Virus record (IMG/VR): IMGVR_UViG_3300020045_003878 | Span: 1 to 28,500 of that record | DNA: 28,500 nucleotides | Strand: one strand, 5' to 3' | Origin: a virus | Taxonomy: Duplodnaviria; Caudoviricetes | Shown here: in pieces, positions 2,620 through 23,121 of the stretch | Position numbering within the stretch: the first letter of the stretch is position 1 | Layout of the letters: each line of letters starts with the position of its first letter | Program-made: the position numbers and the translations under genes | Notes under the pieces: generated by a model | Told to the model about the DNA's origin: nothing | The model's database searches: none | What the model saw: only the letters and a program-made list of their open reading frames with translations

Positions 2620-3767
2620 TAACACCTAAGTTAAAGGAGTTACAGGACTCCATTTTAAGCGCTTTCGAAACCCGCTTTGGTACGATAAATAGAGGTTTAA
2701 AATCTACCTATATGGTTATATCGCAGGTTCTAGCTGGGGAGCTCCGCCTTGTATACCTCTTTGGTGCTTCGGTGCAAAAGAATGTTTTTGTAGATTTGGC
2801 TGATCCAGAAGTGGACGGAGGAACACTCGAACGTTTTGGGAGGGCGAAACTAGGCAGAGACCCGTTTCCAGCTTCCCAAGGACTCTATCTTGCGGATGTT
2901 ACAGGGGCAGCGGGCGGTGTTGTACGTGCGGGGGTAGTATTTAAGGCTGCAAACGGTTACAACTATTCAAATGAAACAGCGCTCACTCTTACAGGCACTA
3001 CAGGACAGATAACCTTAAGAGCGTTAACACCTGGTCTAGTTGCCAAGTTAAACCCTTTGGACACGCTCAACGCTACAGAGCCTATCCTTAACGTGGATGG
3101 ACAAGGAGTTGTTAACCAAGAAATCGAAACACCACTAAATGCAGAAGGCATAGAGGATTATAGGCAGAAGATTCTTTTAGCTTTTAGGACGGAGTCACAA
3201 GGTGGCGCCTCTGGTGATTATAGGCTCTGGTCAGCGGATGCACAAGGGGTAGAAAAGGTTTATCCTTTCGTTGGTATGCCTGGCACAATTAACTTATATG
3301 TTGAGGCAACGGAAATAGATAGTACCGATGGATTCGGTACGCCTACAATCACTATCCTATCTAATGTAGAAGCGGTATGTATATTAGATCCTGACACCTC
3401 TAAAGATTATAACGATAGGGGTAGATTACCCCTTGGAGTTTTTGAGTTTAATGTGTTGGCTATCACACCTATTGCGGTTGACCTTGCGGTAGGGGGGTAT
3501 AATGGCAATATATCGGAGGCGCAGACCCTAGTAACAGCGGCGCTCAAAGATTATTTAAAAACAATACGGCCTTACGTGGCGGGGGCTGATGAACTAGATG
3601 CCTCTACACTTTCTGAGCAACGCCTAATAGGGGTAGTGTCCGATGCTTTACCTATTGAGTATAATTTTACGACTCTTTCGATGGCAGTAGGGGGAGCGCC
3701 TGTAGGCGTTTACCAATTCGTATATGGGGAGATACCAAGAGTAGGAACGATAGCAGTGACTGTATGA
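2616..3767 (+). CDS. Baseplate J-like protein (Mu gp47 family)
   Basis: 'LERFG', 'ALTPG', 'E.IEDYRQKIL...R...QGGA.GDY..W...A.GVE.V' are J-family motifs; 383 aa. Confidence 0.9.
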   Translation: MITPKLKELQDSILSAFETRFGTINRGLKSTYMVISQVLAGELRLVYLFGASVQKNVFVDLADPEVDGGTLERFGRAKLGRDPFPASQGLYLADVTGAAGGVVRAGVVFKAANGYNYSNETALTLTGTTGQITLRALTPGLVAKLNPLDTLNATEPILNVDGQGVVNQEIETPLNAEGIEDYRQKILLAFRTESQGGASGDYRLWSADAQGVEKVYPFVGMPGTINLYVEATEIDSTDGFGTPTITILSNVEAVCILDPDTSKDYNDRGRLPLGVFEFNVLAITPIAVDLAVGGYNGNISEAQTLVTAALKDYLKTIRPYVAGADELDASTLSEQRLIGVVSDALPIEYNFTTLSMAVGGAPVGVYQFVYGEIPRVGTIAVTV

Positions 3768-4453
3768 TACTAGGAGATTTAGCAAGGCAATTAAAGCCTA
3801 AAGGTAGAGCGTTTAGATTCCCGAAAGGAGGTAACGCTGATGGGGTTCTGTCTGTTACAAGCGGAGCTATCCAAACGTGTGTAACTTCTATCTACTCCAT
3901 CCTCGATACGATACTACCAGATAACCCTAACTTCTCAGAAGCGGATGCGGCGATATGGGAGAAACGCCTAGGACTACTACAAGGTACCGACTTAGAGACA
4001 CGTAAAAAAGCCATTATGCGTAAGCTTAATAGCCCAGGGCAATGTAAAGGCCGACAGTCCCTAATCTACATTCAATCCCAACTACAAGCGGCGGGGTTCG
4101 AAGTTTGGCTACACGAGAATAAGTTTTCCGATGGCTCAGGTGGTTATGTTGTCACTAATCCAGGAGACGGTACGGGTGGATATACACAGCATGGTTTAGG
4201 TATACATGGCGTTTCAACTCATGGAGCTAGTGGGTTCCCATACAATTCGATAGTTGCTAATTACGATAGAAAGGAGTTGGAGACTTCGCCCGTTTATTCT
4301 GATATCGAGCTTAGATTTACTTTTTTTATCGGGGGTCAAACATTCCCTAATTTTGCGAGTGTGCCAAAAAACAGAGAAAGAGAATTTAGAAAATTGATAT
4401 TAACCCTTAAGCCGCAACACATGGTAGCTTATCTTTTAATAAATTATGTATGA
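3764..4453 (+). CDS. Baseplate wedge protein, YmfQ/Mu gp48-like
   Basis: 'QLKPKGRAF', 'WEKRLGL', 'R..AI..KL...G', C-terminal 'LKPQHM'; follows J. Confidence 0.82.
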   Translation: MILGDLARQLKPKGRAFRFPKGGNADGVLSVTSGAIQTCVTSIYSILDTILPDNPNFSEADAAIWEKRLGLLQGTDLETRKKAIMRKLNSPGQCKGRQSLIYIQSQLQAAGFEVWLHENKFSDGSGGYVVTNPGDGTGGYTQHGLGIHGVSTHGASGFPYNSIVANYDRKELETSPVYSDIELRFTFFIGGQTFPNFASVPKNREREFRKLILTLKPQHMVAYLLINYV

Positions 4454-5370
4454 GAAAATTAATTGATACCCCAAATATGGGGGCTGCGAGTCCAGCATTC
4501 CCAGACGGGGCGATAGTTGATAATGCTGGGGCGGTAATAGGTACGGCCTTAACTGAGATTCTCTATGGCGACACCATTCAGGCGGTGCATAAATTGAAAC
4601 GGTTAGCGGGGATAACAGAGAATAATTTACCCGATAATGAGACTAATGGGTTTCAAATACTAACAGCCTTATTCGCTCAGGGGCTACCAACGTGGCAACC
4701 TACGACAGCAAAAGTTGATTTTAGTAAAGCTAAATGGGTAAGCTACGCAAATGGTATCTATTACCACAAAACAACAGCAAGTACAGATACAGTCCCAAGC
4801 TTAGACTCAGATAATTGGTTTAGAGTGTTTTATTGGGATGGCTCTAAAATTGTGTTTTCCGACGAGACGAGAACAGCGGGGATAGAGTCTGATATCTCGG
4901 CTTTAGAGACAGCCGTTGCCGCCTTAGTAGCCGCGGCACCTGCTATAGCCGCACATTTAGCCGATACTACTAACTATAATAACGCGTATATCGATAAGTA
5001 TAGGCCTTTTGCGGTAGGTACGGTTAGCCTTCCAGATATAGCAGGGGGAGCCCCAACTGTTGGGCAGGTGTTATCTGTGACAGGAGATTTCGAGTTTGCG
5101 CAGGTTTCCGCCTCCGTTGCTGACTCGCATACTGTCATAGCGATAAGACGAAAGGCTGCAATCAACCCTCTAGTTGTCAACAAATATAGGGCTAACATAT
5201 CGTTTGAGGATATGGGGACAGATGACACCTCATGCCTGACGGCTAAATTTATTCGCATGCCTGCGGCGCCCATAGACCTATCAAGATATGTAAGTGTTCT
5301 TATACGCGAAACAAACGGGGTGGTACAATCAAGTCAGACTATGCACCTAGAGTTAATAAACACCTATTGA
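4450..5370 (+). CDS. Short tail fibre / baseplate-attached fibre protein
   Basis: Occupies the Mu gp49 position; 'AGI....PD.....QILTAL' baseplate-docking-type N-terminus, W-containing beta module, short coiled coil, beta-rich tip. Confidence 0.6.
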   Translation: MRKLIDTPNMGAASPAFPDGAIVDNAGAVIGTALTEILYGDTIQAVHKLKRLAGITENNLPDNETNGFQILTALFAQGLPTWQPTTAKVDFSKAKWVSYANGIYYHKTTASTDTVPSLDSDNWFRVFYWDGSKIVFSDETRTAGIESDISALETAVAALVAAAPAIAAHLADTTNYNNAYIDKYRPFAVGTVSLPDIAGGAPTVGQVLSVTGDFEFAQVSASVADSHTVIAIRRKAAINPLVVNKYRANISFEDMGTDDTSCLTAKFIRMPAAPIDLSRYVSVLIRETNGVVQSSQTMHLELINTY

Positions 5371-16197: not shown

Positions 16198-16779
16198 ATG
16201 AAAATTCCGTTTACTTGGATTGTGATAGCTATACTTACGGTCGCACTATTGGCCTTATGGTTAAGATATGATTATGTCTCGAACGAAAAAGAGAGACTAG
16301 GCAAAAACCAAGCATCGTTACTTGATGAGATGCTTAACTTTAAGTTTAGAGACTCATTGCAAGTAGCGCAAATTGGCTCTTTAGAATTGACTAAAAACGA
16401 ATTTAAACGGCACTTTGAAGAGGCCGCAAAAGAGGCGAAGGATTTAGGTCTAAAGATTAAAAGAATTGAATCATACACATCAATTACAACCCAAGTAAAA
16501 GACTCATTTAAGACCGTTTTTAAAGACTCAATCACAATTAAGCGCGATACTATAAAATGCTTTAAATACTCTGACAAATGGCTTTATTTTGCGGGCTGTT
16601 CGGCAAATGATAGCTTGGCTGTTAATTACTCAGTAATTGATAGTATTGAATCGTTTGCAAATCGAGTGCCAAGAAGATTTTTATTTATAAAATACGGCAC
16701 TAAAGGAATAAATTTGACAACATTTAGCAAAAACCCTAATTGTAAAATAGTTAATCAGACGTACATTAAATTAAAATAA
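16198..16779 (+). CDS. Spanin-like lysis protein (DUF6549-like)
   Basis: N-terminal TM, coiled coil, 'DSITIKRDTI', 'RRFLFIKYGTK'; follows endolysin and holin. Confidence 0.6.
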   Translation: MKIPFTWIVIAILTVALLALWLRYDYVSNEKERLGKNQASLLDEMLNFKFRDSLQVAQIGSLELTKNEFKRHFEEAAKEAKDLGLKIKRIESYTSITTQVKDSFKTVFKDSITIKRDTIKCFKYSDKWLYFAGCSANDSLAVNYSVIDSIESFANRVPRRFLFIKYGTKGINLTTFSKNPNCKIVNQTYIKLK

Positions 16780-16809
16780 CCACATTTTTTAAATTTTAAA
16801 TAATATTTT

Positions 16810-16986
16810 ATGGAAGCAATGCCAAGAAGAAATCAATTAGACAAATTAACGGATGCAGAAATTGCTATTCAGAAAGCAATTAACGAGGTCGAGATGCTCG
16901 GTTGTGACACCAGATTAACGGATGCTGTTATCAAACTACAAGAGGTAAAAAATATTGTTGCTGATTTTATTGATGGCAATTTATAA
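16810..16986 (+). CDS. Small helical hypothetical protein (58 aa)
   Basis: Not in the ORF track; MEAMPRRNQLDKLTDAEIAIQKAINEVEMLGCDTRLTDAVIKLQEVKNIVADFIDGNL. Confidence 0.7.
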   Translation: MEAMPRRNQLDKLTDAEIAIQKAINEVEMLGCDTRLTDAVIKLQEVKNIVADFIDGNL

Positions 16987-16994
16987 ATTTTAAC

Positions 16995-17002
16995 TATATT
17001 TG
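16995..17002 (+). promoter_or_regulatory. -7 promoter element for the tRNA
   Basis: TATATTTG 5 nt upstream of the tRNA 5' end. Confidence 0.65.
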
Positions 17003-17007
17003 CACAT

Positions 17008-17080
17008 GCTATTTTAGCTCAGATGGTAGAGCGCTTTGTTTGTAACTAAGATGTCGAACGTTCGAGTCGTTCAAGTAGCT
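17008..17080 (+). tRNA. tRNA-Thr(UGU)
   Basis: Acceptor GCTATTT/AAGTAGC; D arm GCTC/GAGC; anticodon arm CTTTG-TTTGTAA-CTAAG (one U-U mismatch); T arm GAACG-TTCGAGT-CGTTC; CCA not encoded. Confidence 0.92.
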
Positions 17081-17128
17081 CAATTCGAGTAGTAAGGGTA
17101 ATTAATTACTTAGGGCTACGTTTAGATT

Positions 17129-17163
17129 AAAAACCCTCTTTCAAACGTGATTGAGGGTTTTTT
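17129..17163 (+). terminator. Intrinsic terminator after the tRNA/late operon
   Basis: AAAAACCCTC...GAGGGTTTTTT. Confidence 0.8.
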
Positions 17164-17307
17164 GTGTATATAACTTATGAAATAAATAACCATAATGTAG
17201 TTATACATAAAAATAGTTAACTATTATTTTAAAAATAAATTACAAAATTGTATTATATATTAATATATTTATTATCTTTACATAAATTATTAACTAAATA
17301 ATACTAA

Positions 17308-17916
17308 ATGAAAACATCAGTTATTCAAACTCCAGACATTTATCGGATGCAAAGAACGAGCGACCGATATGTTAATGCTACTCATTTTTTAAGTGAGTAC
17401 AACAAAAGTAATAACCAGCTTAAAATTTTAGGGAATTACATGAAACTCACAACCACAAGTGAGCTTATTGATGGATTAATTGAAGAGGGTATTGAAAAGC
17501 CTTTTATTTCTGCTCGCGGTAGTGGTGAGAAAGCTGGTACATGGATGCACCCTTTTTTATTACTAGACTTCGCAATGTGGCTATCAGTTGAGTTTAAAAT
17601 AATGGCTCTAAAATGGATTAATGACGGTCTTATTCAGGTAAGGCACGAGGCAGGCGACTACTACAACGAAATGACTGCTAAAATACTTGAAAAGCATATT
17701 GAGATTTATGGTTATAAACCTTCTGCAAAGCTGTTTTTAGAAGAGGCTAGGTTAATAAAAGAAGTTGCCAATATCAACAAGCCACGCAATGAAATGACTG
17801 AGTCTGAACTTGCAAAGATTACCACTCTTCAGAAGGTAAACACCACTTTAATTTCTGATAATGTTGGCAGGGAGAGCCGAAAAAAGCATTTAACTATTAT
17901 TTCACGTTCAATTTAA
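17308..17916 (+). CDS. KilA-N domain DNA-binding protein
   Basis: 'QRTSD.YVNAT', 'GTWMHP.L.LDFAMWLS.EFK'. Confidence 0.9.
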   Translation: MKTSVIQTPDIYRMQRTSDRYVNATHFLSEYNKSNNQLKILGNYMKLTTTSELIDGLIEEGIEKPFISARGSGEKAGTWMHPFLLLDFAMWLSVEFKIMALKWINDGLIQVRHEAGDYYNEMTAKILEKHIEIYGYKPSAKLFLEEARLIKEVANINKPRNEMTESELAKITTLQKVNTTLISDNVGRESRKKHLTIISRSI

Positions 17917-17921
17917 AAGCT

Positions 17922-18341
17922 ATGAAAAACTTACAATTACAACTTAAAAAACAATGGTTTGAAATGACTAAATCTGGTGAAAAAACAGAGGATTATAGAG
18001 AAATAACAGAATATTGGGCAAAAAGATTATTGGATATAAATCTAAGTCAAGAACATATAGAGGGCGGGGTTATCTGTGAGTTAATAGAAGATTTAAACTC
18101 GCTTAATAGCGATAAAAAAACACACATTTCGGCTGAAGAGTGTTTGTATAATTTTGATTGTAAGTTTAAAGTTTTCGACAGCAACACGATGACTTTAGGT
18201 TATCCAAAATCAACTGATTCAAGTCGCATTTTAAAACTTGAGCACAAAGGAATCGAAATAAGAGAAGGAAATCCAGAGTGGGGAGCAGAGAAAGGCAAAT
18301 TATATTTCGTAATTAAACACGGTAACTTTTTAAATAATTAG
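17922..18341 (+). CDS. ASCH (PUA-like) domain protein
   Basis: 'LQLKKQWFEM.KSGEKTEDYRE...YW..RL', 'G.PEWGAE.G..YFVI'. Confidence 0.8.
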   Translation: MKNLQLQLKKQWFEMTKSGEKTEDYREITEYWAKRLLDINLSQEHIEGGVICELIEDLNSLNSDKKTHISAEECLYNFDCKFKVFDSNTMTLGYPKSTDSSRILKLEHKGIEIREGNPEWGAEKGKLYFVIKHGNFLNN

Positions 18342-18344
18342 ACT

Positions 18345-18620
18345 ATGGCTAAAAAAGATTTATCACTCAATAAAGTGGGTGAATTGTGCGAAAAAATAAA
18401 GGGTGAAAATGGCGTTACATTTGAGGAGTTGAAAATAAATAATCCATCACTTAGCGATAATCCAATAATTCCAGTTAGACGTTATATCGAAAAATGCCCA
18501 TCACACGAACGCCCAGACCCAACATGGTCGGATAAGTTAGGCGAATATCCTGAGCTAAAAGAAAGCGATGTGATAGATATTTATGTTTTTATTAATGGTA
18601 TGCCGTGGCAAAGAAAATAG
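18345..18620 (+). CDS. Hypothetical protein
   Basis: 91-aa ORF tightly packed in the operon. Confidence 0.65.
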   Translation: MAKKDLSLNKVGELCEKIKGENGVTFEELKINNPSLSDNPIIPVRRYIEKCPSHERPDPTWSDKLGEYPELKESDVIDIYVFINGMPWQRK

Positions 18621-18808
18621 AGGCTAAAACATCCATTAAAATCGTTGTAGTTGATTGCTTAAAATGTAGTAGGGGCGAAATAGGAGCGTATGATTTAATT
18701 AATTGCGCCAAATCAATTACTCCGCAGCCGAATAGGTCGAAAAGTGGCGGTGGTTGTGTATTTTATTCGCCAAAAATGCAACCTTTTAAAGATAGCAACG
18801 TACAATAA
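18605..18808 (+). CDS. Small Cys-containing hypothetical protein
   Basis: 67 aa, GTG start, CxxC plus two further Cys. Confidence 0.5.
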   Translation: MAKKIEAKTSIKIVVVDCLKCSRGEIGAYDLINCAKSITPQPNRSKSGGGCVFYSPKMQPFKDSNVQ

Positions 18809-18884
18809 AAGCTCACCAAGGCGGGAGCATGGCGATTTTATCAGTAGTGTGACTAGGTTCGCCACCGTATTTTTCGATTTTGTT

Positions 18885-18928
18885 AATAAAAAAAAGACCC
18901 ATGAAACGTCATGGGTCTTTTTTTTATT
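18885..18928. terminator. Bidirectional intrinsic terminator between convergent operons
   Basis: Perfect 20-bp inverted repeat AATAAAAAAAAGACCCATGA-aacg-TCATGGGTCTTTTTTTTATT. Confidence 0.92.
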
Positions 18929-18966
18929 GCGTCTACTGATTGAATTGGAACGATTAACGAAATAAG

Positions 18967-18992
18967 TTGCGTCAATAAGGTTGTTAGCGGTA
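18967..18992 (-). repeat. attC-like half site (R''/L'' side) closing the cassette region
   Basis: Minus strand TACCGCTAAC-aacct-TATTGACGCAA just after the stop of 18994..19356. Confidence 0.6.
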
Positions 18993-18993
18993 A

Positions 18994-19356
18994 TTAAGGA
19001 CGCGAACCTCGGTTGACCCTAAAAAATTCTGTAGCCATTGGCGTAGCATCTATTTTTATATTGTTAATACGCTCAAATCTTCTAAGGAATTGACTAATTT
19101 GATTGATATCACAATCATTTAATTTTATAAATTTTAGGTAGTCAGATTTTTGACCTTGAAGTGAAATTACCGCCCACGATGGAGAATATTTATCGTACTC
19201 GTGAACATCAACGCTGACATCAATATTGCCTAAAACAGAATCGAAAGCTCGCTTTGTTTCTGTCAGTTCAATAGCAATTGATTGCGCCTTAGATATTTCA
19301 GACCTCAATTTGTCTAATTCGGATTTAAAAATCCAGTCAAATAGTTTTTTTATCAT
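18994..19356 (-). CDS. Hypothetical protein (putative gene cassette)
   Basis: 120 aa; bounded by GTTAGCGGTA upstream and TACCGCTAAC downstream. Confidence 0.75.
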   Translation of the reverse strand: MIKKLFDWIFKSELDKLRSEISKAQSIAIELTETKRAFDSVLGNIDVSVDVHEYDKYSPSWAVISLQGQKSDYLKFIKLNDCDINQISQFLRRFERINNIKIDATPMATEFFRVNRGSRP

Positions 19357-19401
19357 TTTTACAGTTATTAATTATGAATATTTAGATTAAAAAATAAAAC
19401 C

Positions 19402-19464
19402 TACCGCTAACACTATATTGCTGTACCCTATCGGGATGCCAGCAACATACGTCCGTTAGGCGTA
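19402..19464 (-). repeat. Complete attC-like imperfect palindrome
   Basis: Minus strand GCCTAAC-ggacg-TATGTTGCTG-gcatcccgatagggta-CAGCAATATA-gt-GTTAGCG; 57 bp core to core. Confidence 0.7.
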
Positions 19465-19467
19465 ACT

Positions 19468-19707
19468 TTAGGACACCGACAGCGCAACTGATTTAACTTC
19501 AAAATCATCATAAATACTACCACACTCACAAAATCCTTGTATTTTACATCCAGATTCTTGACACTCGGGTTCTGGGAGTAGTTCAAAAGCGTCATTGTAT
19601 AGTCGCTCTATAACTTCTTTTATAGGCATAGATGATATTACAACACTTCCATCTTTTTCGGTGAAGGAAAAATTAAGATTATCTGTACTGTTTAAAATTA
19701 TTTTCAT
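19468..19707 (-). CDS. Small acidic Cys-cluster protein (CxxxxC...CxC)
   Basis: 79 aa; 'ECQESGCKIQGFCECG'. Confidence 0.65.
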   Translation of the reverse strand: MKIILNSTDNLNFSFTEKDGSVVISSMPIKEVIERLYNDAFELLPEPECQESGCKIQGFCECGSIYDDFEVKSVALSVS

Positions 19708-19722
19708 TTAGATTGGTTTTAA

Positions 19723-19947
19723 TTAAGATTTCATATAATTAGAAAGTTCGTTTCTGTTTTCGATTGAGTTAATCAGCTCTACCACGGCATCTATATTGAC
19801 TATATTTTTATACCAAATCAATTTGCCTTCATCATTCAAACAATAAACCTTCTTTTCTTCCCATTTCTCTGCCCTGATAATTAGTGATGCCCTAATAAAG
19901 GTTGCATTTCCGCTCTCGTGCTTTAGCTTTACTAATGGATTATACAT
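19723..19947 (-). CDS. Hypothetical protein
   Basis: 74 aa; A-rich leader. Confidence 0.65.
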   Translation of the reverse strand: MYNPLVKLKHESGNATFIRASLIIRAEKWEEKKVYCLNDEGKLIWYKNIVNIDAVVELINSIENRNELSNYMKS

Positions 19948-19970
19948 AGTTTTAAAATTAGACTTTGATT

Positions 19971-20005
19971 AAATAAAACCTACCGCTAACATCATATTGT
20001 TGCAA
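19971..20005 (-). repeat. attC-like half site (L'/R' side) opening the cassette region
   Basis: AAATAAAACCTACCGCTAACA is identical (21 bp) at 19392-19412 and 19971-19991; similarity continues through ATATTG.TG.A. Confidence 0.65.
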
Positions 20006-20234
20006 TAAAACTAAACTCAATCCTCTCATTCGCCTCTGCTATGTGATTTGAAATGCACTCTACTATCTTATCTTCAAGGCATCTATTGCCTCTAATGGAT
20101 TGCAAATGTATCCCTAATTGATTAATCAAATGAGGCGAAAACACGAATGGATTGACGGAACTATGTTGGCACAGTTGGTTAGTTAAACTCATGCCATACT
20201 TGCTTAAATCGAGCCTTATTAGTACTTTTTTCAT
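19992..20234 (-). CDS. Hypothetical protein
   Basis: 80 aa; ATGA overlap with the upstream gene; stop lies within the half site. Confidence 0.6.
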   Translation of the reverse strand: MKKVLIRLDLSKYGMSLTNQLCQHSSVNPFVFSPHLINQLGIHLQSIRGNRCLEDKIVECISNHIAEANERIEFSFIATI

Positions 20235-20644
20235 ATAAACACCTCCATCTCTCTATCCTTTAAAATAAGTTTTGAGCCATTTTTAAAAACAACCTCGCAA
20301 AATAATGTAGTACTTTCTGTAGGATGGTAGTCGATTGATAAGATATCGCACAACTTAAACCTTACATAGCTCTCAGTATTTCGCCCGCAAACAGAGTAAT
20401 TGATGCCATTTTCGCAATTAGTAAGAAAATCTCTCGATACCAACCGCGCAAACGTCTCCAACTCCAATCTACTAAACCCAATCTCACTCAACTTAGCCTC
20501 TAATTTAAGCAATACGGAATCCTTAACAACATCATTTGTATTAATCAATTTTCCCAAAGTGGCCTTATGAACCCCCGTTAAATTGTGCAAAAATGAAATT
20601 TTCAAATCTCTTTTTACGATAAACTCTTTTAATTTGTTTCGCAT
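20231..20644 (-). CDS. Putative Cro/XRE-like HTH regulator
   Basis: N-terminal 'KLKEFIVKRDLKISFLHNLTGVHKATLGKLIN' fits an XRE HTH pattern. Confidence 0.55.
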   Translation of the reverse strand: MRNKLKEFIVKRDLKISFLHNLTGVHKATLGKLINTNDVVKDSVLLKLEAKLSEIGFSRLELETFARLVSRDFLTNCENGINYSVCGRNTESYVRFKLCDILSIDYHPTESTTLFCEVVFKNGSKLILKDREMEVFI

Positions 20645-20648
20645 AATG

Positions 20649-20849
20649 TTATTTATTAAAAAATATTACTGTTTCATTAGCGATAATAAAATATGACCAG
20701 CCAAGAACCGCAAGCCTAAAACAAATTAGGCTATACTCTTCAATTTCTTGAATATCCATCTCCATTTTCATAGAGTAACTTTTAATTTCGGTGGCCTCTT
20801 CGATTTGAGGCGAAATACTTTTGATGTAATTCGATACTAACTTTCTCAT
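20649..20849 (-). CDS. Hypothetical protein
   Basis: 66 aa in a tightly packed operon. Confidence 0.6.
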   Translation of the reverse strand: MRKLVSNYIKSISPQIEEATEIKSYSMKMEMDIQEIEEYSLICFRLAVLGWSYFIIANETVIFFNK

Positions 20850-20853
20850 GGCC

Positions 20854-21252
20854 TTAGTTTTTATGTGTTATTTTACCGTTTTCAAAAAAATACAATCCCT
20901 TACTAGTATTTAAGCAATACTTAAACCCATTTTCAGTGCCTTTAATTGCCATATCGTAGATGGTTACATAAGATATCAACCAATTAACTCGATTAGCCGT
21001 AAAAGCGATTGTATTGTTACTTACAACTGGATGGTATTCTTTAATAAACTCATCAAAAAATAGTGCATCGTTAATTGTTGCTGCAAATTCACTTAATCCA
21101 TATCGTTGTGCGAACACTGCCAACGGGATTAATTTTTGTTCGTCGATTATCTCTCCTTTGCTCAATGCGAGTGCATCGTTGTAATAAGGAGTAGCGATTA
21201 GGTTATTTAAATTCAACCTACTAAATGCGATTAATTGTTCTCTAAGTGTCAT
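20854..21252 (-). CDS. Hypothetical protein, first gene of the leftward operon
   Basis: Start MTLREQ at 21252, downstream of the promoter. Confidence 0.7.
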   Translation of the reverse strand: MTLREQLIAFSRLNLNNLIATPYYNDALALSKGEIIDEQKLIPLAVFAQRYGLSEFAATINDALFFDEFIKEYHPVVSNNTIAFTANRVNWLISYVTIYDMAIKGTENGFKYCLNTSKGLYFFENGKITHKN

Positions 21253-21277
21253 GTTGTTTCGTTTAATTGTTATGATA

Positions 21278-21309
21278 CAAATATAGTGCATAAAAGTACA
21301 TCTACCAAA
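21278..21309 (-). promoter_or_regulatory. Leftward Bacteroidota sigma70-type promoter
   Basis: Minus strand TTTG-N20-TATATTTG matches the -33/-7 consensus. Confidence 0.75.
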
Positions 21310-21338
21310 TTTAAATGTATTATTTTGATATATTTGCG

Positions 21339-21361
21339 TTATTTATATTGAGTATAAATAA
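21339..21361. promoter_or_regulatory. Palindromic operator-like site between divergent promoters
   Basis: TTATTTATA-ttgag-TATAAATAA. Confidence 0.5.
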
Positions 21362-21415
21362 GCGTTTTTAGGTTAAATAATCGTTGTTTTATTAGTTGGG
21401 TAATTTTGGTAGTTG

Positions 21416-21423
21416 TATATTTG
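21416..21423 (+). promoter_or_regulatory. Rightward -7 promoter element
   Basis: TATATTTG 28 nt before ATG 21452; further TAnnTTTG copies at 21329 and 21401. Confidence 0.65.
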
Positions 21424-21451
21424 TAAAACAATTAAACTAAATCATTTACTT

Positions 21452-22045
21452 ATGAAAACACCAAAAAACGATTACTTATTAAGGTTATTTATCGGCACCG
21501 ATGAGTTGAGGCCTCAATTTATGCACGCAAATAATTGCGATGGAATTATTTATGCAACAAACACCTATTTACTTGCAAAGATTAGCGCTAATATGTGCTG
21601 TAAGTCTTACGAGCAAATTAAGGCTTGGCCTAATGGTAATATTTTATTTGAGCAGTTTAATCTTAAAGAATCATTTTCAATTAGTACTGAATCTATTTTT
21701 AACGACTTAATAAAAATAGAGCTTTTATTTAAAAACAAAATGGTTGATTGTAATGAGTGCAATGGGGATGGTACATTAATTTGCGAACATTGCGACTCCG
21801 AGCATGACTGCAAGGAGTGTTGTGGGTCTGGTGAAATTAAATCCCATGAAATGATTTTATCTGGAGATGCTGATTGCATTTTATTTGGCAGGAAATATTC
21901 ACTGAGCGCTATTGACAAAATAATAAGAGTCGCTACAACCCTCTCGGTAATTGATATCACAATAGACCACAACGAAAGTGGCAGTTCTTCTATTTTCAAA
22001 ATTGGAGACTTTACAATTTTAGCCATGTGTAAATTCGACTTATGA
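21452..22045 (+). CDS. Protein with DnaJ-type Cys-rich zinc finger inside a possible beta-clamp-like domain
   Basis: CNECNGDG, CEHC, CKECCGSG; flanking 'DELRPQF...IYATNTYLL'. Confidence 0.6.
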   Translation: MKTPKNDYLLRLFIGTDELRPQFMHANNCDGIIYATNTYLLAKISANMCCKSYEQIKAWPNGNILFEQFNLKESFSISTESIFNDLIKIELLFKNKMVDCNECNGDGTLICEHCDSEHDCKECCGSGEIKSHEMILSGDADCILFGRKYSLSAIDKIIRVATTLSVIDITIDHNESGSSSIFKIGDFTILAMCKFDL

Positions 22046-22302: not shown

Positions 22303-23121
22303 ATGGAACTAAGAGTAGCAAAAAAAGAAAGTGTATTTCTTAAAATTGGAATAAGTGGCCCGAGTGGATTTGGGAAAACGTATTCTGCTTTATTATTGGC
22401 TTATGGTATCACGGGCGATTGGTCAAAAATTGCGGTAATAGATACCGAAAATAATAGCGCATCGCTTTATAGTGATTTAGGTGAATATTTAACCTTAAAT
22501 TTAACGCCTCCGTATTCGCCTGAGCGATATAATGAGGCTATAGGTATTTGCGAGCGTTCTGGAATCGAGTGTTGTGTGATTGATTCTATTTCGCATGAAT
22601 GGGAGGGTAAGGGCGGCTGTTTAGAGGCTCACGAACAACTAGGTGGACAATTTGCTCATTGGGCAAAAATAACGCCACGTCATCGCTCGTTTATCGATAC
22701 TATACTACAATGTAAAATGCACACAATTACAACAGTGCGAAAAAAACAGGATTATGATTTAGTTAAAAACGATAAAGGCAAAATGGAGCCCGTAAAAGTT
22801 GGACTAAAAGAGATAACTAGAGAAGGGTTTGAATATGAATTGACTTTAAATTTAGAGATAATCAACGCTAATCACTTAGTAAAAGCCTCAAAAGATAGAA
22901 CAAACTTATTCGACGGTGCTCCAGAGTTCATAATTACAAGCGAAACTGGTAAAGATTTGATTAAATGGGCAAAAGATGGCGAAGATTATGAGTTGAATTT
23001 AAGCCAAATAACCGATATCGAAGAGCTTAAAAATTACTACAAGTCATTAAGCGTAGCTAATCAACATAAATACAGTTCTTTAGTGACTGAATTAAAAGAT
23101 AAATTAACACCTAAAACATAA
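22303..23121 (+). CDS. Sak4-like (AAA_24) ssDNA-annealing ATPase
   Basis: Walker A GPSGFGKT, 'IAVIDTE', Walker B 'VIDSISHEW', 'REGFEYE', 'SKDRT'. Confidence 0.85.
   Translation: MELRVAKKESVFLKIGISGPSGFGKTYSALLLAYGITGDWSKIAVIDTENNSASLYSDLGEYLTLNLTPPYSPERYNEAIGICERSGIECCVIDSISHEWEGKGGCLEAHEQLGGQFAHWAKITPRHRSFIDTILQCKMHTITTVRKKQDYDLVKNDKGKMEPVKVGLKEITREGFEYELTLNLEIINANHLVKASKDRTNLFDGAPEFIITSETGKDLIKWAKDGEDYELNLSQITDIEELKNYYKSLSVANQHKYSSLVTELKDKLTPKT

Follow-up and report, generated by a model that had tools for sequence, protein, structure and literature searches.

The described systems closest to the locus reported here are integrons, the integrase-less clusters of attC sites (CALINs) found in phages, and Xer-dif. 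Xer resolves dimers at one double-stranded dif site. Integrons comprise an integrase (IntI), a docking site (attI) and cassettes with attC sites, and the origin of cassettes is an open question. The I2 insertion is a recombinase feature specific to IntI, and the relation between hairpin recombination and I2 has been stated as a 'chicken-egg' problem (PMC4792948 and, for the insertion, also PMC8138268, each as far as its accessible text goes); the accessible text of PMC9024848 reports complete integrons to be rare in Bacteroidetes. A phage CALIN is defined by the lack of an integrase and by two or more attC sites, no further than 3 kb apart, that IntegronFinder or HattCI plus Infernal calls. 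The accessible part of PMC9892861 gives 17 CALINs among 10,705 phages, including that of Polaribacter phage P12002L with its 'divergent' sites, of which attC1 failed with IntI1 and attC2 recombined. Both sites are treated there as attC, their divergent directions being ascribed to mosaicism, and that part of the paper mentions neither a docking site nor a family of host recombinases nor genes in mirror orientation. In the open-access literature we found no description of the Bacteroidota system, phage docking site or mirror orientation set out below; subscription papers and bioRxiv supplements, which lay outside the scope of this search, may bear on the point.

The window, 28,500 nucleotides that make up an entire record, is a linear viral contig with an estimated completeness of 56%, whose gene content includes tape measure, baseplate J and DnaB. 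With a probability of roughly 0.7, we read one of its loci as a phage-borne, recombinase-less platform consisting of an attI-like docking site, one intact cassette and one damaged unit, which a XerA-like enzyme of the host probably serves in trans. A first-pass annotation had proposed a Bacteroidota-type integron-like cassette system in a phage, and this part of it is supported. The locus has the following features:

18885..18928, no strand assigned: perfect 20-bp inverted repeat, 100% complementary, with a 4-nt loop and A/T tails
18927..18933, plus strand: second copy of TTGCGTC, a direct repeat 40 bp from the docking-site copy, also present in the L009 platform
18967..18989, plus strand: site C, the putative attI-like docking site, TTGCGTCAATA-N5-G|TTAGCG
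18984..19455, plus strand: cassette 2, 472 bp, G|TTAGCGGTA ... TACCGCTAAC plus hairpin, its gene antisense to the canonical top strand
18994..19356, minus strand: 120-aa cargo gene, with 89 homologues, of a family common in Bacteroidota phages
19392..19412, minus strand: shared 21-bp cassette start TGTTAGCGGTAGGTTTTATTT, copy 1, repeat family D6
19405..19461, minus strand: site B, a complete attC-like hairpin, its coding strand corresponding to the canonical bottom strand
19456..20003, plus strand: unit 1, 548 bp, two genes, with the ends of two cassette types
19468..19707, minus strand: 79-aa ORF, Cys-rich, with one homologue at 75% and no Pfam match
19723..19947, minus strand: 74-aa ORF, with no PHROG or Pfam match
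19971..19991, minus strand: shared 21-bp cassette start, copy 2, repeat family D6
19987..20003, plus strand: site A, a single hairpin arm TAACATCATATTGTTGC, overlapping the last codons of the 80-aa ORF
19992..20234, minus strand: 80-aa ORF, its stop codon inside the site A arm, with three homologues
21278..21309, minus strand: predicted Bacteroidota-type promoter of the leftward operon, TTTG, 20 nt, TATATTTG, 2.3 kb from the docking site

The array forms the terminal part of the leftward operon, which a rightward operon faces across the inverted repeat at 18885-18928, a predicted bidirectional terminator between the two that a simple terminator scan did not call. The leftward promoter placed at 21278-21309 at first pass stands: it is the only one of 12 TAnnTTTG matches in 16700-21500 with TTTG at -33, judged by what we take to be the Bacteroidota promoter consensus, and a sigma-70 promoter scan of the window was at chance level (18 vs 22.5). 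The divergent promoter region (21247-21357) is 72% identical to positions 2427-2537 of L005/L181, a phage with several cassette arrays. The host of the phage is probably a member of the Bacteroidota, because 20 of the 21 genome loci with the 19-bp cassette start are titled as Bacteroidota, as are all six genome loci of the 120-aa gene family; the one other cassette-start locus is titled Asaia. A blastn search of the region against 50,697 annotated phages gave chance-level matches only, an AAA-protein search gave 69 distant phages (up to 60% identity), none of them a relative carrying the same locus, and no close relative with an empty or other cassette at exactly this locus was found; the variability described below is that of other phages that share the motif. 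In the sequencing runs (three small-share DNA runs, contig-type, with no RNA run listed), two 151-nt contigs cover the 79-aa and 74-aa ORFs, and no joints.

The intergenic stretch at 18625-18935 (+), terminator hairpin included, has a strong predicted RNA fold (z -3.97, 0 of 100 shuffles), and a non-coding RNA could account for its GC-rich stems at about 18670-18870, which match no Rfam family at gathering score. The Rfam scan put the tRNA alone above gathering score, the remaining matches being terminator-level. This tRNA-Thr(TGT), at 17008-17081 (+), lies between the lysis region and a KilA-N gene and is followed by 30-nt direct repeats 112 bp apart.

The three sites that punctuate the array share sequence, as first noticed, but they are not equivalent: site B is the only full hairpin, and sites A and C fold no better than shuffled sequence. 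Site B begins 6 nt past the stop codon of the 79-aa ORF, and the attC architecture seen in it at first pass is present in full on the minus strand from 19461 to 19405, with GCCTAAC, a 5-nt spacer, TATGTTGCTG...CAGCAATATA, GT and GTTAGCG, 57 bp core to core. Its supposed deviation from GTTRRRY vanishes on the plus strand, which reads GTTAGGC at 19455-19461, and its crossover would lie at 19455|19456. The site folds end to end on both strands, slightly better on the coding strand; taken alone the fold is modest (z about -1.8, with 11-14 of 200 shuffles as good). Among 12 hand-picked short members of the site B family, 10 of 18 pairs have changed on both sides, a number reached by none of 500 shuffles in a control that kinship can inflate. 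Near twins of site B (82-85% identity) are found in L009 and L114. Its unpaired bases are on the crossover-side arm, which is 2-4 nt longer in 74 of 77 sites. No Rfam family matches the hairpins. Our own hairpin finder made 94 calls in 1.57 Mb and 22 in shuffled DNA, so its false-positive rate is a real one.

The 9-mer ACCGCTAAC has three copies in the 28.5 kb, every one of them inside the array kilobase. Both units do begin with the same 21 bp (19392-19412 and 19971-19991), and the D6 repeat pair extends over 32 nt at 91%. A cassette start of 18-21 bp recurs at 11 viral loci (9 distinct contexts), 18 metagenome loci and 21 genome loci, where it is preceded by varied hairpins and followed by varied genes. 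The non-canonical site family that had been suspected is supported. In phage cassettes the 21-bp start is a 5' leader, and in chromosomal cassettes it is a 3' gene tail.

Cassette 2 is intact and self-complementary, its ends being exact complements over 10 bp, GTTAGCGGTA (19411-19402) and TACCGCTAAC (18992-18983). The first-pass annotation had recognized this complementarity and assigned it to a unit at 18994..19356; those are the bounds of the ORF, and the unit runs from 18984 to 19455. The modelled circle junction of cassette 2 folds at -15 to -17 kcal/mol, and in the array at -8 to -9. In 40 of 54 distinct units between consecutive hairpins, from loci picked by patterns from the window and not independent of one another, the three bases beyond GTTR complement those before YAAC; 2000 shuffled pairings gave a mean of 8.2 and a maximum of 16.

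Unit 1 lacks such complementarity, ending in GTTAGCG and GCCTAAC, and the proposed cassette array comes down to one intact cassette and one damaged unit. The end types GCGGTA/TACCGC and GGCGTA/TACGCC are each found elsewhere, in L003 and L105, as matched pairs. The simplest account of unit 1 is therefore a fusion; it is likely two cassettes fused, or otherwise damaged. Of the resemblance once drawn between the 3' ends of the two units, the TTAC..TAAC tail is a real cassette-end motif, and GTCCT, which is coding in different frames, is probably there by chance. All 17 nt of site A are matched by an arm of the complete hairpins of L119 and L005/L181, and no partner arm occurs in the window with up to 3 mismatches allowed. 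An intact gene-in-loop cassette at site A was considered and is ruled out, the window holding no partner arm. The three homologues of the 80-aa ORF are conserved up to FSFxAT, including the residues encoded by the site A arm, so simple truncation of the site fits poorly, and site A may be a decayed loop-cargo arrangement instead. The 80-aa ORF itself, which has no tblastn match in the 50,697 annotated phages or in genome contigs, is either a resident gene of the operon or former loop cargo.

Site C, on the terminator side of the operon, appears to be an attI-like docking site and not a broken attC, because a motif derived from hosts ranks it first and because its platform is kept in related phages while the cassette changes at TAAC. 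We built this motif, positioned before GTT, solely from Bacteroidota DNA, using the 300 bp downstream of the gene at 33 tyrosine-recombinase loci (the 30 best loci of a genome search and three others). It was found at 19 of the 33 (0-2 in 10 shuffles), with the consensus TGCGCnTATAnGCGA|GTT, and the other 14 have no clear docking motif. Among the 583 GTT[AG] positions of the window site C ranks 1 at a score of 12.0, with the runner-up at 6.3, and it is still first (8.3 vs 7.3) when the six most similar host sites are removed; site B ranks 90 and 468, and site A 352. The host site of L344 reads TTGCGTCAATA-N5-GTTAGCGGTAAT and has the core of site C. At 10 of 12 other viral or metagenome loci, all picked for likeness to site C, the terminal site ranks first in its own locus. 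Of 20 host docking sites checked, 12 have a complementary cassette end of 9-10 nt in the 0.1-1.45 kb of sequence available after them, with a sense gene in 11 of the 12. The crossover of site C would lie at 18983|18984, which places an attI-type docking site with a G|TT core at one end of the array.

The platform of about 69 bp (18920-18987) is 80% identical by blastn to the end of a four-unit array in L009, where the last cassette is a different one. Identity begins at TAAC, and the bases before it differ, each set being complementary to the start of its own unit. L109 and L115 likewise have the platform and the next gene in common, and their last cassettes differ. A change of gene content at the GTT/AAC core, which had been anticipated, is therefore seen in these other phages with the same motif. 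A scan for the docking motif gave 119 viral stretches and, together with the earlier loci, 126 matches in 45 distinct contexts. An automatic test found a hairpin within 1 kb and 9-10 complementary bases in 7 of the 45, the window included, and 5 further contexts passed by eye; L247 has no visible partner, and the remaining matches in viral contigs, the majority, look like chance. The 20 viral loci with the pattern CGCTAACANNNNTATTGACG are all apparently chance, and two specific docking patterns matched no genome locus. The docking motifs of L109, L115, L185 and L248 run on into a perfect palindrome of short length, AGACGCA-A-TGCGTCT or a close variant, which site C lacks.

The genes of the array run against the canonical direction. 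On the coding strand of the window the site reads TAACG...TGTTA, the bottom-strand reading of a canonical attC and of the aadA7 oligos (Table S3 of PMC9892861, within its accessible part), so site B is inverted relative to its genes. We compared the flanks of 23 hairpin pairs (at least 78% alike, from 240 loosely called sites) and found the TGTTA-side flank alone kept in 13, the other flank alone in 0, both in 4 and neither in 6, where 'both' includes repeats counted on two strands; without the pairs of which both members were picked by leader pattern, the corresponding numbers are 4, 0, 4 and 6 of 14. This one-sided linkage points to a hairpin that belongs with the gene downstream of it and to a crossover at TAA|C, as in canonical integrons but on the opposite strand. 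The cassette geometry first proposed, with the coding strand as top strand, is thus reversed. Counting self-complementary units preceded by a hairpin, again not independent of one another and at loci picked by patterns from the window, we found the gene to follow the TAACG strand in 33 of the 36 viral units (from 17 loci, with two units that span more than one cassette and three that are host-oriented) and in 0 of 27 chromosomal units (18 loci, with 26 opposite to that strand and one without an ORF). The GCGGTAGG/CTTACCGC shell occurs with both gene orientations. The attI-like site is promoter-distal, 2.3 kb from the promoter, so the phage promoter would not be the Pc beside attI for which it had been taken, and the operon would gain new cassettes at its far end.

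Several loci show unusual combinations of site and gene. In L184/L200, L008/L104 and L108/L109 a near-identical hairpin and leader surround different genes, as if shells were reloaded, and L184/L200 also share the 3' tail. In the last cassettes of L248, L185 and L204 the ORF starts in the hairpin loop and continues through the TGTTA arm, so that the site encodes the N-terminus. In L121 a host-oriented unit (3993-4581) lies within a phage array that is otherwise phage-oriented.

The cargo of cassette 2 appears to be an ordinary phage gene packaged into a cassette, as L121 holds a full cassette and L128 a copy in a hairpin loop and other representatives of the family are bare. The family set of 59 loci comprises 50 distinct genes, from which 31 representatives besides the window were taken, and 29 of these 31 have no complementary ends or such sites. 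The L121 copy (60% identical, likely a sister) has a different end type, and the L128 homologue (about 2900-3400) lies entirely between the two arms of one hairpin, as judged by eye in a partial view. A tree of the 32 representatives groups the window with L121 (support 94/84, not a starred branch). Independent capture of three cassette-borne copies was considered and set aside, since a single origin still fits, with 33 of 500 shuffles as low. The 120-aa protein has no Pfam family, its predicted fold (pLDDT 74, pTM 0.41) has no PDB match at E<=0.001, and a single-protein search with the ORF gave one marginal locus.

The contig, at 56% completeness, encodes no PF00589 tyrosine recombinase, in agreement with the first impression that no integrase is in view, and PF00589 is likewise absent from 10 phage records picked for hairpins or motif, two of which are 98-100% complete. 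A sample of 201 genomes from the phylum to which G012 belongs has a candidate family of host tyrosine recombinases, XerA-like, in 58 of them (E<=1e-60). Four members were scored; all four fall short of the cut-off of the TIGR02249 integron-integrase model (194-210 bits, cut-off 265), one passes the NF040815 cut-off, and two adjoin the docking motif. The closest solved relatives of the host enzyme are the XerA proteins 5HXY and 4A8E. The L324 recombinase and IntI4 (2A3V) align in two blocks with 23 and 66 residues, respectively, between them, so that in its catalytic domain the host enzyme falls short of IntI4 by about 43 residues, at an interval that we take to be the place of the IntI I2 insertion; this is consistent with a candidate host enzyme devoid of that insertion. 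Adjacency and motif together suggest that the phage sites may be substrates of the XerA-like host enzyme.

The sequence itself shows the anatomy, the shared motif, the polarity and the one-sided linkage; for the identity of the enzyme, the strand it uses, the circles, the order in which cassettes arrive and the filter on their expression, integron biochemistry served as our guide (PMC4792948 and wider background). In the mechanism that we propose, site B would fold on its coding (minus) strand and be cleaved at TAA|C. Its recombination with site C or another hairpin would release a 472-bp circle, whose ends would rebuild a fully paired site. Incoming circles would insert at G|TT (18983|18984), and the newest gene would then be the last in the operon, transcribed from the phage promoter (21278-21309). 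Older cassettes would shift toward that promoter and decay, as unit 1 and site A may have done. Should a cassette in host orientation insert at this site, it would be antisense and the terminator would shield it; the mirror orientation would in this way filter expression between the phage and host pools.

Other explanations deserve to be weighed against this platform reading. The sites could be relics or linkers whose genes are swapped by homologous recombination between common leaders and hairpins, and not site-specifically in the phage. We consider this unlikely, though it has points in its favor: the common repeats of 21-32 bp, two non-folding sites among the three in the window, a weak match of ORF 22303-23121 to a Sak4-like annealing protein (phrog_124, E 4.5e-5), and the same hairpin and leader around different genes in L184/L200, L008/L104 and L108/L109, which implies exchanges inside cassettes. 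Homologous exchange, however, does not predict complementary unit ends with many different outer triplets (40/54), the one-sided link of hairpin and gene, or a host-matching docking motif at the ends of arrays. It is improbable, too, that the same system runs on a recombinase encoded by the phage itself in the unsequenced part of its genome; a contig 56% complete leaves space for such a gene, but PF00589 is found in 0 of 10 comparable records, two at 98-100% completeness, and site C matches host chromosomal sites.

Still less probable is the earlier geometry, which takes the coding strand for the top strand, places insertion at site A next to the promoter, gives the phage promoter the role of Pc and treats site C as a truncated attC. 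The end complementarity of cassette 2 is symmetric and compatible with either reading, and the end nearer the promoter does have a half site, site A; yet the host docking motif puts site A at rank 352 and site C at rank 1 of 583, the arm of site A is the same as arms of complete hairpins, the upstream flank alone is kept in 0 of 23 hairpin pairs, and what is conserved between phages is the sequence downstream of site C, not upstream. That the hairpins are RNA elements (processing, pausing or translation signals) and the gene turnover ordinary phage mosaicism strikes us as barely credible. Hairpins between co-oriented genes, a coding strand that folds slightly better and the 29 of 31 other representatives of the 120-aa family without such sites would suit it, but the hairpins match nothing in Rfam, their invariant TAAC/GTTA cores and the complementarity of ends across hundreds of bases have no RNA rationale, and in chromosomes the same sites are antisense to the genes. 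We accordingly prefer a docking platform that a host recombinase would serve in trans.

A broader reading, tentative and with the odds somewhat against it, is that Bacteroidota and their phages share one integron-like system, with a XerA-like host recombinase devoid of I2, docking sites of the phages' own and a mirror-image pool, the cassettes being mutually silent and their shells reloaded with ordinary phage genes. If true, it would reveal how cassettes come about and how recombination at hairpins could be older than the I2 domain, and if the enzyme works on these hairpins it would be a natural case of hairpin-site recombination without I2. Set against the reported rarity of complete integrons in the phylum, cassette arrays and the candidate recombinase (58/201 genomes) appear common, and phages carry the matching docking site. 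That one shell carries different genes, oriented one way in phages and the other way in hosts, is relevant to the origin of cassettes, and the system would offer a concrete route for the turnover of small genes in phages. The present locus is a small, partly decayed example; the cultured phage P12002L has the same layout and makes the system testable.

In P12002L, the published attC1 is a hairpin of the site B family, co-oriented with its gene, and the published 'attC2' stands at the operon end after a self-complementary unit of 775 bp, in the position that site C has here. The leftward gene region of its genome holds five hairpins co-oriented with genes, from eight calls overall, some of them probably false. 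At 29243 and about 37300 of P12002L (L368, NC_028924) the same 16-mer precedes two different unit ends of the self-complementary type. We take this to suggest that P12002L has two copies of a phage-specific docking site and that 'attC2' is one of them; the terminal site scores poorly on the host motif (-13.8).

The present locus resembles the phage CALINs (PMC9892861, accessible part) in having integrase-less attC-like sites in a Bacteroidota phage; our own finder calls one complete hairpin here. With archaeal XerA and Xer-dif it shares the affinities of the candidate host enzyme, whose best solved relatives are XerA proteins and of whose scored members 1 of 4 passes NF040815; unlike in Xer-dif, the gene of this enzyme adjoins cassette arrays with hairpin sites. 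The likeness to integrons (IntI, attI, attC; class 1 and sedentary chromosomal) comprises the GTT crossover core, cassette ends that are self-complementary, cargo genes with no promoter of their own, a docking site that has direct repeats and does not fold, and hairpins that travel with their own cassette; the host arrays have the canonical gene orientation. Site B has the imperfect hairpin and AAC/GTT cores of an attC, but not the canonical spacing or the extrahelical base on the R''-L'' arm: its crossover-side arm is the longer one, by 2-4 nt in 74 of 77 such sites, whereas the arms of the aadA7 attC are, by our own reading, equal, with an extra base on the other arm. The phage locus has no integrase in cis on a contig 56% complete, and the candidate host enzyme scores below the TIGR02249 cut-off (194-210 vs 265 bits) and is some 43 residues shorter than IntI4. 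In hosts the docking site is downstream of the recombinase gene, whereas the phage one is promoter-distal, with mirrored cargo, no Pc beside attI and genes antisense to the top strand. Although it departs from integrons at three defining points, namely integrase, attC geometry and promoter position, the locus would appear, from its sequence, to work like one.
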